DNA of 62,315 nt, filler included, from Stramenopiles sp. TOSAG23-2 (Eukaryota), in assembly GCA_900128395.1 (NCBI GenBank). It is 35 parts of 35 records of this genome, joined end to end, with 100 filler letters (N's around TTAATTAATTAA, not from the genome) between each part and the next. Parts side by side here need not be neighbours in the genome. Positions count along the whole stretch, not along the records: positions 21,529 to 23,216 come from LT652498.1; 34 more parts are not named here. The stretch is one strand, 5' to 3'. The stretch's first letter is position 1, and the number at the start of each line of letters is the position of its first letter. Below, piece by piece: positions 20,818-44,203 of this stretch. A program made the translations under genes and the position numbers. The notes beneath the pieces were generated by a model, which did not search any database, was not told the DNA's origin, and saw only the letters and a list, made by a program, of their open reading frames with translations.

Positions 20818-21428
20818 TTATAGATTATATTGAAGTGTTACTTTATTCAGAAGACAGATCCACAATACAAATTTTTGATAGGTAGATATTTCCAAAACTG
20901 GAAACACTATTTTTATTTTAACGGAAATTGCACGTTGACTTACAAGTGATATGAAAAAATGGTTTTTTTGTATGAATAGCATGGTAATAGCATGCTGGGC
21001 ATGGCCATTTACAATACTGACAGCACATTTCTGTATTTTGTCTTGTATTTTGTCTTGTATTTTGTCTTGTAATTCTTCAACACTTTTGTAATTTGATAAT
21101 TGTCTACAAATAAAAATACAACTACTTTTGTTTTTACAATAAAAACTAACTAAAGGATCCATACGACCATAAGCATCAGACTTTTTATTTCCCATTTTAG
21201 CTTCTGTGTAACAACGAATAAATTCACCCACATCATTTCTGTATTGAATTTGCCTTCTCCTCTCATGTTCTATATTTTCTTCCGGACTTACAATTCTCCA
21301 TGCTTTATGATAGACATTGTCTATTTGTGCATTTGCCCAATTGTTATCATGTTTGAACTTTTTAAAATCACTTGGAAAACATTTAGATAAAAAAAGTTTT
21401 AAGAAGGCTTTATGAAATGTAAATGTGA
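20818..21428 (-). CDS. Hypothetical protein fragment with 3x QDKI (12 bp) tandem repeat
   Basis: Frame open from the contig edge to 20818; no recognised domain. Confidence 0.4.
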
Positions 21429-21528: not shown

Positions 21529-23216
21529 CTCAAGCCAACCAAGTAATATTATAATACAAACAATACAATGATAATAAACAAATTACATAATACAAATATT
21601 CGATGTTAGTTTGGATCAATTACAAATAAGCATATAGAAAAGATTATTGATTGATCACCACGATTTACATTTATTTACTTACACCCTAAATCATATTGAT
21701 CAAATCAATAACATATCAAGCCAACGAAGTACATAAAATACTTACCATCGAATTACCTGATACGACACTGTCACTTAAACTCAGTGTACCACTTGTTATA
21801 TAAAATCCTCCACCCTTCAAATACGTGTATTATGTTAGTTTGGATCAATTACAAATCACCATATAGAAGAGAAAATTATTGATTGATCGACATCATTTAC
21901 ATTTATTTACTTACATTCTAAATCATATTGATCAAATCAATAACAATCAAGCCAACCAAGTAATATTATAATACAAACAATACAATGATTATAAACAAAT
22001 CACATAATACAAACATTCGATGTTAGTTTGGATCAATTACAAATAAGCATATAGAAAAGATTATTGATTGATCACCACGATTTACATTTATTTACTTACA
22101 GACTAAATCATATTGATCAAATCAATAATATATCAAGCCAACGAATCACATTATAATACAAACAATACAATGATAATAAACAAATTACATAATACAAATA
22201 TTCGATGTTAGTTTGGATCAATTACAAATAAGCATATAGAACATATTATTGATTGATCAACATCATTTTACATTTATTTACTATCAAGCCAACGAAGTAA
22301 TATTATAATACAAACAATACAATGATTATAAACAAATTACATAATACAAATATTCGATGTTAGTTTGGATCAATTACAAATAAGCATATAGAACATATTA
22401 TTGATTGATCAACATCATTTTACATTTATTTACTTACCATCGAATTACCTGATACGACACTGTCACTTAAACTCAGTGTACCACTTGTTATATAAAATCC
22501 TCCACCCTTCAAATACGTGTATTATGTTAGTTTGGATCAATTACAAATTAGCATATAGAAGAGAAGATTATTGATTGATCAACACGATTTCCATTTATTT
22601 ACTTACATACTAAATCATATTGATCAAATCAATAACACATCAAGCCAACGAATCACATTATAATACAAACAATACAATGATTAAACAAATCACATAGTAC
22701 AAATATTCGATGTTAGTTTGGATCAATTACAATCAGCATATAGAAGAGATTATTAAATGATCAACATACAGCCACATTACCTGATACGACACTGTCACTT
22801 AAACTCAGTGTACCACCTTTTATAAAAAATCCTCCACCCTTTTAATACGTATATATAATGTTAGTTTGGATCAATTACAAATCAGCATATAGAAGAGAAG
22901 ATTATTGATTGATCACACATCATTTACATTTATTTACTTACATACTAAATCATATTGATCAAATCAATAACACATCAAGCCAACGAATCACATTATAATA
23001 CAAACAATACAATGATTAAACAAATCACATAGTACAAATATTCGATGTTAGTTTGGATCAATTACAATCAGCATATAGAAGAGATTATTAAATGATCAAC
23101 ATACAGCCACATTACCTGATACGACACTGTCACTTAAACTCAGTGTACCACCTTTTATAAAAAATCCTCCACCCTTTTAATACGTATATATAATGTTAGT
23201 TTGGATCAATTATTAT
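21529..23216. repeat. Modular tandem array formed by near-identical introns and exons of the microexon gene
   Basis: tgttagtttggatcaattac recurs about 10 times, and a ~335-bp unit is repeated (22607 to 22942; 22770 to 23105). Confidence 0.97.
21683..23173 (-). CDS. Spliced beta-helix (Pmp-like GG..N repeat) gene fragment built from 69-nt exons and 3-nt microexons
   Basis: Exons in transcription order: 23173-23105, 22944-22942 (TAT), 22838-22770, 22609-22607 (TAT), 22506-22438, 22102-22100 (TCT), 21917-21915 (AAT), 21814-21746, 21685-21683 (GGT). All are AG|exon|GT(A/G) bounded and phase 0. Joined product: GGGFFIKGGTLSLSDSVVSGNVA-Y-GGGFFIKGGTLSLSDSVVSGNVA-Y-GGGFYITSGTLSLSDSVVSGNSM-S-N-GGGFYITSGTLSLSDSVVSGNSM-G. 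Confidence 0.85.
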
Positions 23217-25002: not shown

Positions 25003-25102
25003 NNNNNNNNNNNNNNNNNNNNNNNNNNNNNNNNNNNNNNNNNNNNTTAATTAATTAANNNNNNNNNNNNNNNNNNNNNNNNNNNNNNNNNNNNNNNNNN
25101 NN

Positions 25103-26788
25103 TCGATGTCATTGTCAAACCCAAAAAAGCTCGGATTAAATTCTATACACAATGACCTTTCCCCATCGTGGGAATCGTCATCTGCAGTTGCACTATTTAA
25201 TAATGTTGGAAATGCCAACGGTGGCAATGCACCCATGTTTAACGGGAGATTAATTCTACCGCGGATTAGTCTCTTTTCATAATCAAACAAGTGAACGCCG
25301 GTCCATGCCATAGCAATATGTTCATTGTTTGCGCATATTTCAAAAGTAGCAAATGAGGTTAGCGGCAAATCTTTGATTTTGCATCCTAAATCAATAAATA
25401 CGTCCACAGGTATTATTAGCTTTTGACCGAATTCAATATCTACTGTATCCATTTCAATATCGTTATCAAATGTACTTTCAACAGCACATCGGGGTGTTTC
25501 ATATTTGAGACTCCCTTTTTCAATTGGACCTAACAAGGATGGTGACGATTCACCACACCCAGTCCCAGGCGATGGCCATAATTTTACGCGCACACGAAAT
25601 AGCATGGCACTTTGGCAACACCGTACCTTCTTGTTTTTCAATCCAACAAATAAATCTTCACAGTTGTCTAAATGCTTGACTTTCAATTCTATATTATTCT
25701 CAAGCGTGTGAGATTCATGTACATATGTTGAGTTGCAACAAGTTAACAGTTCGTCCTCGTGTATGTTCAAAGATGCAGTTCTAACAACACCTTCCACCTT
25801 CATCATATCCTCGGGTGTAAATGGATTTGCTGCTGGTCGCACAATTTGTAGGACAATCAGCGGCTCTTCGTCGCTTGCACTTATTGAATCATCTAAAATG
25901 AGATTCACCATGTCGGTTGACCTGGATTTTTCATTACCTTTTTGAGTTTTGAACTGCTCGCTAAATGTTGCGTTTTCATTTTCATATCCAGATGCAAAAA
26001 TTGGCAAAGCCATGACCGTATAATCAATTTGCTTTAAACTTTGCATCATACCCATGGCGCTTTTGTCATAATATGGATGGTCCCAAGCATGATCCTCTAG
26101 AATTGGCAAAGCCATGACCGTATAATCAATTTGCTTTAAACCTTGCATCATACCCATGGCGCTTTTGTCATAATATGGATGGTCCCAAGCATGATCCTCT
26201 AGTACAAATTCTCCGGTCCTTGCAACACCACGCATTATCCCTAATAATTTTGTCAAAATTATTTTATCACTAGCTTTGGACGATATCTGGATTGATTGCC
26301 CAGCTTTATCTCCATAAAGTGGTATTGCAATTGATATCTCCGATGCTTTGATAACTTTATTGTCTAAAAATAAAAGTAAACGGTGAATTATATCGCGTGC
26401 GGTTAATTCAGGTCCAATTACTTTTAAAAAGTCTAATTGTAATGAGCCAGATATTTTCTGAACATCTTGATTCCCAAGCGATGATTTCAAAGTCTCTACC
26501 ACAGACCAGGTCTTAACAATTTTCTTTTGCCTTGGTAAATTACCAACACCCTCCGTCTGCCTATTTTCACTTAAATTTCCGGATATCTCCCCCCAAGAGA
26601 ATGAGTTTGGTACATCTGGATCGCCTTTATAATCGCTTTCAATTTGCATGAGCAAATCATTATCGCCTTGAACATTGCGTGCATCAGCATCATCTTCGTC
26701 AAAAGTATCCTCCTCCTCCTCCCCCTCCATGTTCTCTTTCACAATTTCATCATCACCTGCAAGTGCATAATTAGGAGTTTCAATTAGC
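25103..26788 (-). CDS. GAF-like domain followed by PI3K-type C2 domain (probable PI3-kinase fragment)
   Basis: GAF-like VMALPIF..EPLIVLQIV..FTPEDM, then KIKDLPL..TFEI..AMAWTGVHLFDYEKRLIRGRINLPL (PI3K C2). Contains an in-frame 102-nt duplication. Confidence 0.7.
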
Positions 26789-26888
26789 NNNNNNNNNNNN
26801 NNNNNNNNNNNNNNNNNNNNNNNNNNNNNNNNTTAATTAATTAANNNNNNNNNNNNNNNNNNNNNNNNNNNNNNNNNNNNNNNNNNNN

Positions 26889-32969: not shown

Positions 32970-33760
32970 ATGAAACGATTCACATATATTATTAAATTAT
33001 ATTCCATATTGTTATTATCATTTTTATTATTTGTTGGTATTAATGTCGAAGCGCCAACACTCGGTGATGGTGATAGAAACGATCCGATTTTAAGACATAC
33101 CTATTTTGGATCTAGGCGTATCATCAATGACGTCGAAAAAATAAGTGACTTCATGAAATCTAATGTAATATATTTAGATGCTATAAAAAATGAAGTATTA
33201 AAAGATGCCGATGGAAATGATATTGGTATTAAACATGAGGCATTAGTAACATAAGACCCGGACAATCTGTAGAGTGACCTTTCCTGAGAGTAAATCGATA
33301 AATAACTAATTTCATATACTTTAAGTAGAATTTACCCGTATATCACTATCAAACATTCTTTCTAGATCTGACCAAAATTATTTTTTTTTGAAAAATTTGT
33401 TTCCTTATATTTTTCTGAGGCCAAGAAGATGGCATAAACGCACTCTGGACATTGAGCATTTTTGTAAAGGGCACGACGGTGATTTTATACATATAAAGAA
33501 TATTTTTTTTGATCAANNNNNNNNNNNNNNNNNNNNNNNNNNNNNNNNNNNNNNNNNNNNNNNNNNNNNNNNNNNNNNNNNNNNNNNNNNNNNNNNNNNN
33601 NNNNNNNNNNNNNNNNNNNNNNNNNNNNNNNNNNNNNNNNNNNNNNNCAACAGAAAGTGAAATGACACAATGGTGAAGTTGCAATGTTACGATTCATTGT
33701 CCATCTTTCAGTTTAGTGAGATAGATTTTGTCTCAGTTATTGTACCAGGTATTCTTTCTG
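32970..33760 (+). pseudogene. Degraded gene with signal peptide and AAA-ATPase-like (PF09820-type) N-terminal motifs
   Basis: DVEKISDFMKSNVIYLD..YIFLRPRRWHK resembles the DF..I....YYVD..RPRRFGK motif of that family. Several in-frame stops and a scaffold gap at 33516-33647. Confidence 0.35.
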
Positions 33761-41053: not shown

Positions 41054-41153
41054 NNNNNNNNNNNNNNNNNNNNNNNNNNNNNNNNNNNNNNNNNNNNTTA
41101 ATTAATTAANNNNNNNNNNNNNNNNNNNNNNNNNNNNNNNNNNNNNNNNNNNN

Positions 41154-42932: not shown

Positions 42933-44203
42933 AAATAAGATCGAAGCTGTCAGAGGTTTAATATTTAATTGTTTAAAACTTCGCTTTTGGAATGAAGTGT
43001 TGGTAGCAACCACAACGGCTACACGTCCACCAGAGGATGAATGGGATAAGCCTTCAGAAATTCCACAGCTTGCATTAAATAGGGTTGGGGCAACGTCACA
43101 AATTCTTCAGAGTTTAAGTGATACGGAAACTAGATTTAAGAAAAGTTTATTAAAACGCTTTTGTAATACATGGGAAAGTCGGCATTGGCGTCGTTCCTAT
43201 CAACACGTCACAGATAAAGGTCAGAGTCGTGCTTTCTTTGCAAAATTTTTAGGAGAAAATGTTGATGATAATGGAGGCCCGTATCGAGCCGTATTTGTTG
43301 CCGCTGTTTGTGATGAGCCGTCTCAAGCTCTTGATCTGCTTGATAGCAATGGCTGCTTTAAATACTCCTCTTTGGAGGGTAACGTTGAATTTTTTGGCAA
43401 GTTAATTGGCCTTGCGATACGACATAAGATGCTACTATCCTTGCCATTTGCATCTTACATATGGCATTTTTTAGTTGGTACTGATATTGATGACGAACAA
43501 AGAAACTGTAATGGTGATGATGGGCAAAAATGTGTCTCTGGGTATGAAATTTGCCGTTCTATTCAGTATATGGATGAAGAAGAGACATTAGAGTTGATTA
43601 CTGAAATTGTAGGAAGTAAAGAAACAAAAGATGTTTCGGAAGAAATAAAGCTGAGTGTCACAAACGAAGAAAATGACTCGAAGAAACAGAAATATCTGAA
43701 GTTTTTACAAGAACATATGCTGAAGAAAAAATCTGCATTTCTTGATAAATTTATCAATGGTTCAATTGTTCCCGATGTTTACAGCAGGGGAGTTGAAAAG
43801 TTTAATGTGCGGGGACGATACAATAAATTTGACCCTTCTACAAAAAGTTGCAGTATACGATGATGGGGTTGATGCTAACGAAGCATACATATTAAATTTT
43901 TGGAAAGTTTTATTCAATATGTCAGATGGAGAAAAAAGTAAATTTATTAATTTTGTATATGCCAAAAAGCGGTTGCCTGCATCTATCTCTGGGTTCATTA
44001 TGCCATTTAAAGTTTTGAAACCTCTGCCATACATGAAGGAGGCACCAGATAATTTTTTACCACATGCTAAGACATGCTTTTTTGAATTAGCCATACCAAA
44101 ATATACATCTATAGACATATGCAGGGAAAAGATTTTGTATGCTATAAATAATTGCATAACGATGGAAGATTACAGCTCTGGGTCTACCGACTTTGTGTTG
44201 TAA
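42933..44203 (+). CDS. HECT-domain E3 ubiquitin ligase, 3' part, frameshift near 43760
   Basis: KFLGENVDDNGGPYR, FFGKLIGLAIR, ELKSLMCG, FWKVL..MSDGEKSKFINFV and LPHAKTCFFELAIPKY (catalytic Cys). Confidence 0.93.

Follow-up and report, generated by a model that had tools for sequence, protein, structure and literature searches.

Several described systems come close to the locus reported here without coinciding with it. Schistosoma micro-exon genes (MEGs) are outlined as having exons of 3–81 bp and introns of up to 5 kb (bioRxiv 10.1101/2023.06.21.545858). For SRRM3/4-dependent animal microexons, a long distance from branch point (BP) to acceptor AG and a strong 5′ splice site (5′SS) are presented as the core architecture (bioRxiv 10.1101/2024.09.17.613571). 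Short accounts also mention single 3-nt exons in animals and plants, and three consecutive microexons of 3, 18 and 22 bp in RPS24. In the AGGT model of intron gain, tandem duplication across a splice junction is described as creating an intron and, in 'imprecise' cases, as possibly adding nucleotides to the mRNA (PMC3443670). Some introners and (stw)introns are reported to carry inverted repeats able to pair the intron ends (PMC8469720, PMC3443670). Here we analyze a 1688-bp contig within a 62,315-base stretch of DNA from Stramenopiles sp. TOSAG23-2 (hereafter the window), in which copies of one intron family stand in tandem, separated by single NNT triplets that are candidate one-codon exons. 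Strings of one-codon exons would be a rare gene architecture, and our literature searches turned up no published description of runs of such exons in which every exon is accompanied by a copy of a single intron family.

The central observation is a tandem amplification, at the boundary between rungs of a repeat protein, of a phase-0 intron with 3 nt attached. The window strings together ~35 unplaced contigs, each of ~1.7 kb and in descending size, with linkers of 100 bases (N44 + TTAATTAATTAA + N44) in between. The adjoining contigs are unrelated, and reading across a linker is meaningless. The entire finding is confined to the contig at 21529–23216, where the gene runs on the minus strand. 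Its anatomy, the repetition of its parts, their pattern of conservation and the exclusion of AG are direct observations; the features are listed in Table 1 in the order in which they would be transcribed.

Table 1. Parts of the contig in window coordinates, from the 5′ to the 3′ end of the minus-strand gene.
Feature	Position	Strand	Basis or remark
Stand-alone unplaced contig, 1688 bp	21529..23216	.	Linkers on both sides (N-run table, sequence); adjacent contigs unrelated
Intron 3′ end, short type (modules A+B), cut by contig end	23174..23216	-	ACTAAC 22 nt from AG
69-nt exon 1, one beta-helix rung (predicted), GGGFFIKGGTLSLSDSVVSGNVA	23105..23173	-	Translation
160-nt intron, GTATGT variant of module A + module C	22945..23104	-	ACTAAC 103 nt from AG; no internal AG
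Triplet TAT, candidate one-codon exon	22942..22944	-	Sequence
103-nt intron (A+B)	22839..22941	-	ACTAAC 22 nt from AG
69-nt exon 2, same as exon 1 (GGGFFIKGGTLSLSDSVVSGNVA)	22770..22838	-	Translation
160-nt intron (A variant + C)	22610..22769	-	ACTAAC 103 nt from AG
Triplet TAT	22607..22609	-	Sequence
100-nt intron (A+B)	22507..22606	-	ACTAAC 20 nt from AG
69-nt exon 3, GGGFYITSGTLSLSDSVVSGNSM	22438..22506	-	Homologous to rungs of P0129 and P0128
335-nt intron, A+C unit with internal 152-nt tandem duplication	22103..22437	-	Two ACTAAC, 257 and 105 nt from AG
Triplet TCT	22100..22102	-	Sequence
182-nt intron, full A+C unit	21918..22099	-	ACTAAC 105 nt from AG; predicted 19-bp stem joins ends
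Triplet AAT	21915..21917	-	Sequence
100-nt intron (A+B)	21815..21914	-	ACTAAC 20 nt from AG
69-nt exon 4, same as exon 3 (GGGFYITSGTLSLSDSVVSGNSM)	21746..21814	-	Translation
60-nt deletion derivative: GTAAGTA + last ~45 nt of module C	21686..21745	-	No branch-point-like motif
Triplet GGT	21683..21685	-	Sequence
First 154 nt of another A+C unit, cut by contig end	21529..21682	-	Module match

The introns are assembled from three modules. Module A reads GTAAGTAAATAAATG ... GATCAATCAATAAT ... GTAATTGATCCAAACTAACAT; module B consists of ~20 nt running to the AG; and module C is a T-rich segment of ~100 nt that ends in ...TTATTGATTTGATCAATATGATTTAG. The repeat unit is a U2-type intron of 181–182 nt plus one NNT triplet, 184–185 nt in all, with GTAAGTAA at the 5′ end, a conserved ACTAAC block, an AG-free tail of ~100 nt lacking a proximal branch motif, and TTTAG. 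A first, sequence-only reading of this contig had described introns of two classes, the longer of which precede the triplets; its intron lengths, ACTAAC distances and AG-free stretch are all numerically right when read on the minus strand, and its proposal that an intron and 3 nt are duplicated as a unit agrees with the period of 185 nt in the window and 184 nt at the second locus described below. It had also stated that introns before triplets use the same 5′ module as the others. Both 160-nt introns, however, start with GTATGT and lack the first ~20 nt of module A. Tandem Repeats Finder (TRF) calls repeats of 185, 152 and 335 nt in the contig at 89–97% identity, and a 21-mer from the intron modules has 10 matches in the window vs 0.01 expected by chance, all in this contig. 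The ACTAAC motif taken by itself is not enriched across the window (30 observed, 10 of them in this contig, vs ~40 expected). The 60-nt intron at 21745–21686 had been singled out as lacking ACTAAC, as we also find, and it contains no CTAAC-like motif at up to one mismatch; judging from this, it is probably unable to splice alone.

When metagenome contigs were searched with a 20-mer from module A, a second locus emerged, L001 (14,009 bp, 7 matches). The other contig returned, L002, was rejected as a chance match in a bacterial-looking contig, and viral and prokaryote collections yielded 0 matches to additional loci. The L001 gene starts at 3932 on the minus strand with a signal-peptide-like N-terminus and runs for 406 codons to ...ENMILTNGE/GTAAGT, where an array of 1397 nt begins; a long exon follows from 1317, beginning GGGLYVGSNS and carrying IPT/TIG domains (PF01833, 7e-23). 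As parsed, the array has six introns: one of 254 nt at its start, four of 181 nt, and one of 404 nt at its end. Between them stand the triplets GGT, TTT, GAT, GAT and TAT, and the repeat period is exactly 184 nt. The reading frame is kept with or without the triplets, both here and in the window contig. Units of the two loci are ~85% identical (33 differences in 212 consensus columns), and the intron family occupies the same place in both: phase 0, between N-x-x and GGG[FL][YF], in homologous beta-helix rungs. Five of eight relatives of L001 exon 1 (P0121–P0124, P0127) end at the same ...TNGE and read on into GTAAGT, and we therefore consider the intron position to be conserved in the family and those five sequences to be genomic. 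A search with longer proteins across the L001 junction gave two matches: the gene model P0129 and a distant paralogue, P0130. The downstream L001 exon matches mostly large TIG-repeat proteins, and among the 150 listed the best stretches start at query residue 56 or later (at least 56), short of the junction.

The outer introns of L001 have some peculiarities of their own. The first begins with a 62-nt GT...AG piece, and its unique 5′ part (2654–2714 and 2613–2619, minus strand) contains two extra AGs, one in CACTTAG and one in ACTAACAG right after an additional ACTAAC. Three ACTAAC motifs in the last intron (1498–1721, minus strand) come from partial, rearranged unit fragments, and this intron ends in a unique, T/G-rich, AG-free tail of 189 nt with CCTAAAT 22 nt from the acceptor.

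Splice signals are complete throughout the two arrays. A start in GTAAGTAA or GTATGT and an end in (T)TTAG are found in 8/8 complete window introns and 6/6 L001 introns; the donors are GTAAGT at all five internal L001 units and, in the window, seven GTAAGTA and two GTATGT. ACTAAC is intact in 10/10 window copies and in 10 L001 copies, is present in every unit of both loci except the 60-nt one, and is joined by a unit-terminal AG at 10/10 unit ends. We regard ACTAAC as the probable branch motif of this organism, based on two plausible ordinary introns on other contigs (2532–2701 and 4986–5177, plus strand), in which the donor is GTAAGTA and ACTAAC stands 41 and 38 nt before the AG. The spacers between units are exactly 3 nt in 10/10 cases and always NNT, so that none is a stop codon. 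Each triplet is flanked by an acceptor and a donor, is frame-preserving in length and contains no stop (10/10).

The two classes of intron are distinguished by the position of the branch motif. Across both loci, none of the ten introns before triplets has a CTAAC-like motif (up to one mismatch) within 8–70 nt of its acceptor, and all four complete introns before long exons have one 20–22 nt from the acceptor. This proximal motif is a perfect ACTAAC in the three window introns and CCTAAAT, with one mismatch, in L001, where the nearest perfect ACTAAC lies 195 nt from the acceptor. The association proposed from the window contig, a distal branch point before triplets and a proximal one before long exons, thus holds beyond the window. 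Module C, which the sequence-only reading took as an extra module peculiar to introns before microexons, directly precedes a long exon in 0/5 cases, and none of its ten complete copies contains an AG; on these points, which that reading had itself named as tests, it stands. The general link it drew between microexons and distal branch points also accords with the long BP–AG distance given as central to animal microexons (bioRxiv 10.1101/2024.09.17.613571, as outlined there). Its further claim that the pattern independently supports a microexon interpretation does not stand, as the copies are related by descent. Because the introns are copies of one another, and exons 1 and 2 and exons 3 and 4 are themselves identical pairs, they amount to few independent observations at most.

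AG is excluded from these introns over their whole length. It is missing from 8/8 interior segments tested, for which shuffles expect 2.9–17.5 (P 0.02 to <5e-5); the segments include 5′SS to BP, BP to AG, an A+B intron in full and, from the last intron of L001, its 396-nt interior. From ACTAAC to the acceptor there are 0 AG vs 4.4–4.6 in mononucleotide shuffles (P 0.002–0.003). The reverse dinucleotide GA occurs 2–18 times in the same segments, and the exons carry 6 AG per 69 nt. The two control introns named above, plausible as ordinary introns though without homology confirmation, contain 7 and 6 internal AGs, and the exclusion is therefore special to this intron family and spans the whole unit. 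An AG-free zone specific to module C, as first supposed, is too narrow a description: the exclusion extends to the segment from 5′SS to BP and to the short introns. AGs are retained only in GTAAGT and at the unit end, with two exceptions: the joint of the 152-nt duplication, which creates the one internal AG of the 335-nt intron (22282–22281), and the last two bases of the contig (21530–21529), where other copies read T. The distribution suggests that AG is retained only where a separately spliced unit would need it.

Divergence between the L001 and window consensus sequences is unevenly distributed. The 5′ variable part differs at 7/17 positions and the middle of module C at 11/46, compared with 1/21 in the 5′ arm of an inverted repeat, 1/36 in the ACTAAC block, 2/43 in the last 43 nt and 0/8 in the following donor. 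The inverted repeat corresponds to a predicted 19-bp consensus stem in which the segment 16–40 nt from the donor pairs with the 25 nt before the acceptor. This end pairing has compensatory changes at 0/40 pairs and folds no better than shuffles (z −1.41), and the segment from BP to acceptor shows no unusual folding (z +0.1 to +1.0 vs shuffles). We had considered that RNA structure might shorten the distance from BP to acceptor, and rejected this idea since the folds are no better than those of shuffles. The consensus fold, computed on the window unit 21918–22099 and the L001 units (alignment A1), also pairs ACTAAC with a conserved CGTTGGCTTG block of module C (columns 71–79 with 144–152) with no covariation; such a pairing could, in this model, sequester the branch point.

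The 69-nt exons are real coding rungs, as judged from BLASTP matches to P0129 (13 of 22 residues identical, 1e-6) and P0128 (9e-7). Single window exons matched 0 Pfam families. P0128 scores 17.8 bits vs a cutoff of 15 on TIGR01376 (POMP_repeat), and the C-terminal end of P0129 holds a TRP-like membrane domain (PF06011). We assign the host gene to a secreted or surface protein family of beta-helix rungs, with the intron between ...N-x-x and GGG[FL][YF].... The relatives have continuous rungs, with periods of 21–29 residues, and the periods that would result here, 23 residues with the triplets skipped and 24–25 with the triplets included, are therefore both acceptable. An argument from spacing, that the relatives never show N-x2-GGG, was rejected in view of the 21–29-residue rung periods of P0128.

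Based on these observations, we propose that tandem duplication of an intron with one codon has made real one-codon exons, a proposal that in our judgment stands evenly balanced between right and wrong. Repeated unequal crossing-over or slippage would have duplicated an intron plus the first codon, GGT, of the next exon, and the first two bases of the copied codon would have drifted afterwards. The triplets themselves fit this origin: GGT comes first after an exon, in L001 as well as after exon 4, and every rung exon also opens with GGT. We infer from the signals that each unit is spliced and that the triplets are put to coding use. Intron definition would recognize each unit, the units would be removed separately, and each triplet would stay in the mRNA as a one-codon exon, making the loop from one rung to the next longer. 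With its distal position, the branch point would hold U2 ~100 nt from the next 5′ splice site, which begins 3 nt past the acceptor, and exclusion of AG from the whole unit would block cryptic acceptors in an array with many branch points. It is also conceivable, though we think it unlikely, that rung loops are built from up to five one-codon NNT exons, each with its own AG-free, distal-branch-point intron, that unequal crossing-over adds or removes such units, and that their optional use gives combinatorial variation in the length and sequence of the loops; schistosome micro-exon genes would then have a protist equivalent at the one-codon limit.

Sequencing reads bear on this proposal to some extent. 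One 441-nt stretch was compared with four runs (X1, X3, X19, X20), all as contigs and with low RNA depth; contigs of the modules are seen in all four, and splice joints at unit boundaries in none. X19 and X20 come from a set of 17 metagenome entries, all with small shares, and the other 15 carry no weight here; nor do uncovered parts of the stretch in X3, X19 or X20 count as absence. DNA run X1 covers the modules at a depth of 1193–4510, exon 2 at 303–601 and exon 3 at 55–92, with zero depth over 22480–22509 (the first ~27 bases of exon 3) and over 22735–22764. X1, likely DNA of the source organism, contains an exon of the exon 2 type directly followed by a standard GTAAGTAAAT module (joint 22603/22767), as well as a variant with a 3-nt deletion at 22561, and unit copies therefore differ within the genome. 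Run X3 shows modules, in as many as 12 variant contigs at a single site, and lacks exons, and X20 (oligo-dT RNA) has module contigs only, at a depth of 2–4.5. In X19, for which the RNA-Seq label is a guess, the ratio is reversed, exon-like contigs reaching a depth of 3–19 vs 4 for modules, and the difference between X19 and X1 is as expected if the exons are expressed. Two X19 contigs join rung-like units through 17–18 other letters with an 84-nt period. Both joints are in frame (...SGNV-DGNGYG-GGGF... and ...SGNS-AGINHS-GGGF...), with five extra codons each, 9/10 of which end in T. These joints could be spliced mRNA containing five NNT exons per rung, as many as L001 has.

A number of observations weigh against one-codon exons. 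The X19 joints have five extra codons and not the 1–2 triplets of the window, and they could equally come from an intron-less paralogue, since those residues favour NNT codons in an AT-rich genome. No contig of the four runs shows a triplet joined to exons, and the only X20 contig across a triplet (22503–22649, depth 2) runs through acceptor, TAT and donor with both flanking introns unspliced; this contig may be DNA or pre-mRNA. With no branch motif in the 60-nt unit, the adjacent GGT could serve as an exon only through a branch point of non-consensus sequence. The AG of the 335-nt intron lies 79 nt after the first ACTAAC, and its use would add stop codons. Positions 1 and 2 of the triplets vary in both arrays, and so do alignment columns 46/48 and 60/62; with these two further patches, hypervariability of the triplets is weakened as a sign of selection, and we read it as lack of constraint, neither coding selection nor proof. 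A 23-residue rung without the triplets is compatible with the periods of the relatives. Gene conversion within the arrays could keep unused signals intact, and the unit numbers may be wrong because the contig is a short assembly of a repeat and at least one indel error is present elsewhere in the genome assembly.

Much of this would also follow from an intronic minisatellite, the strongest of the alternatives, which we rate as possible and clearly less probable than one-codon exons. The array would be removed as one long intron or stepwise, and the triplets would be discarded as repeat spacers; recent duplication and gene conversion would preserve the internal signals, or else the 19-bp stems would hide them. 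The intact frame with or without triplets would fit this explanation, as would the plain TRF repeats of 185, 152 and 335 nt, the arbitrary ends of the 152-nt duplication, a 60-nt unit that is crippled, a cryptic AG within the 335-nt intron and the varying number of triplets between identical exons (1, 1, 2). So would triplet positions that vary like other unconstrained patches, rung periods in relatives that go down to 21 residues, and runs in which a spliced triplet is not seen and an X20 contig is unspliced across one. The predicted stem closing the ends of each unit could mask its sites, yet the stem shows no compensatory changes (0/40 pairs) and a fold z of −1.41 vs shuffles. Against this explanation, the array contains consensus donors, ACTAAC motifs and acceptors that, judging from established splice-site selection, would normally be used in a long intron; unit ends and GTAAGT are the places where AG has escaped purging; and the signal blocks are conserved between loci of which other parts are 24–41% diverged.

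Two further explanations are less likely because of the tandem, position-homologous arrangement, the lack of dispersed copies in the ~72 kb covered and the independent assembly of L001. One is that the contig is an artefact or a decaying locus, either a collapsed or chimeric repeat assembly or a pseudogene, in which the particular succession of units would be biologically meaningless. Repeats fill almost all of this 1.7-kb unplaced contig, which has a crippled 60-nt unit and a cryptic AG and belongs to an assembly with a frameshift in an open reading frame (ORF) for a HECT domain. X1 has zero depth at 22735–22764 and 22480–22509, the variant joint 22603/22767, and a module-to-exon depth ratio of ~6–7, above the ~2–3 within the contig. 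Still, the same architecture, with five consecutive units, recurs in an otherwise ordinary gene of the independently assembled 14-kb L001, and module contigs are present in all four runs; we consider this explanation improbable. The other, repeated insertion of an introner-like or MITE-like (miniature inverted-repeat transposable element) mobile intron of ~182 nt with its own splice sites, the triplets being host remnants or target-site duplications, is the least probable of all: it would accommodate the high and varied copy number (X1 modules at 1193–4510 vs 55–601 for the covered parts of exons; X3 variants) and the 15–19-bp inverted repeat near both ends, in line with outlines of proliferating introns with terminal inverted repeats in fungi (PMC8469720) and of introner and introner-like elements (PMC3443670), but in both loci the copies occupy one equivalent position of homologous rungs, as a tandem array of exact period, the inverted repeat is subterminal and not terminal, the flanking triplets match in 1/4 internal L001 units and are hence not target-site duplications, and the viral and prokaryote collections give 0 matches. 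In the same vein, the cassette cannot be called portable on this evidence, as the sequence-only reading had it. Both loci are at one homologous phase-0 position, and other duplications, such as the 152-nt one, have arbitrary ends. The spread to unrelated genes that had been envisaged finds no support from an nhmmer profile, which gives 0 further matches when run, as a weak test, on the remaining ~58 kb of the window and 12.6 kb of L001.

The remainder of the window provides some context for the source and the assembly. Window GC is ~30%, and long eukaryotic ORFs on other contigs encode a myosin head, WD40/PLRG1, RCC1, ankyrin and LRR proteins; the top matches of the PLRG1-like ORF have 87% and 75% identity, followed by Acanthamoeba (69%) and fungi. 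The host is an uncultured, AT-rich protist, probably marine. At 43724–43863, the C-terminus of a HECT domain is split over two overlapping ORFs whose frames differ and which no intron signals separate, a break that looks like a 1-base indel error of the assembly. A 592-residue ORF filling the contig at 41102–42880 (minus strand) repeats a Cys-rich segment of ~280 residues almost exactly twice, its end repeating its start (DNDNCKR...), as would result from a long tandem duplication or from a loop in the assembly. The ORF at 25051–26832 (minus strand) contains an immediate, near-exact repeat of ~33 residues (LEDHAWDHPYYDKSAMGMMQ.LKQIDYTVMALPI). A perfect 12-nt tandem repeat of 3.3 copies occupies 21032–21071 on the unrelated adjoining contig, and one additional gap of 131 N is found at 33517–33647.

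The two leading explanations differ in what they would mean. Were the triplets spliced in, up to five consecutive 3-nt exons would make this the densest run of minimal exons known. It would offer a natural test bed for how the spliceosome handles an acceptor and a donor 3 nt apart, and for the room that the branch-point complex requires. Tandem duplication of an intron with one codon would then be a simple route both to new introns and to new residues in surface loops. If the triplets are skipped, the locus would be an intronic tandem repeat that retains perfect decoy splice sites; this would call for caution in gene prediction, and the question would become how such decoys are ignored.

The locus shares with introners, introner-like elements and symmetrical (stw)introns a family of near-identical introns with complete splice signals. 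Those introns are scattered over many unrelated genes, at positions new in each, whereas here, in the ~72 kb covered, the copies form tandem arrays in a single gene family and at a single homologous position. As in AGGT-model intron gain, the duplicated unit includes exonic bases (an intron plus 3 nt, the first triplet being GGT, as is the codon that opens the next exon), but the known cases duplicate exonic segments once, and here a whole existing intron and one codon have been duplicated up to five times in a row. Long introns of Drosophila contain recursive splice sites, or ratchet points, that leave 0 nt in the mRNA. The juxtaposed acceptors and donors in a long intervening sequence are similar, and stepwise removal would be possible, although here 3 nt between AG and GT would remain. 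The long BP–AG distance is shared with SRRM3/4-dependent animal microexons, which differ in being single regulated exons with unrelated introns, UGC enhancers and a dedicated protein factor; the present host is not an animal. The Schistosoma MEGs resemble it in being genes of secreted proteins with strings of very short, frame-symmetric exons, and in them alternative exon use gives protein variants. MEG introns, however, are long and are not described as one repeated family, whereas in this protist the candidate exons are all exactly 3 nt (NNT) and the introns are copies of one ~182-nt unit.

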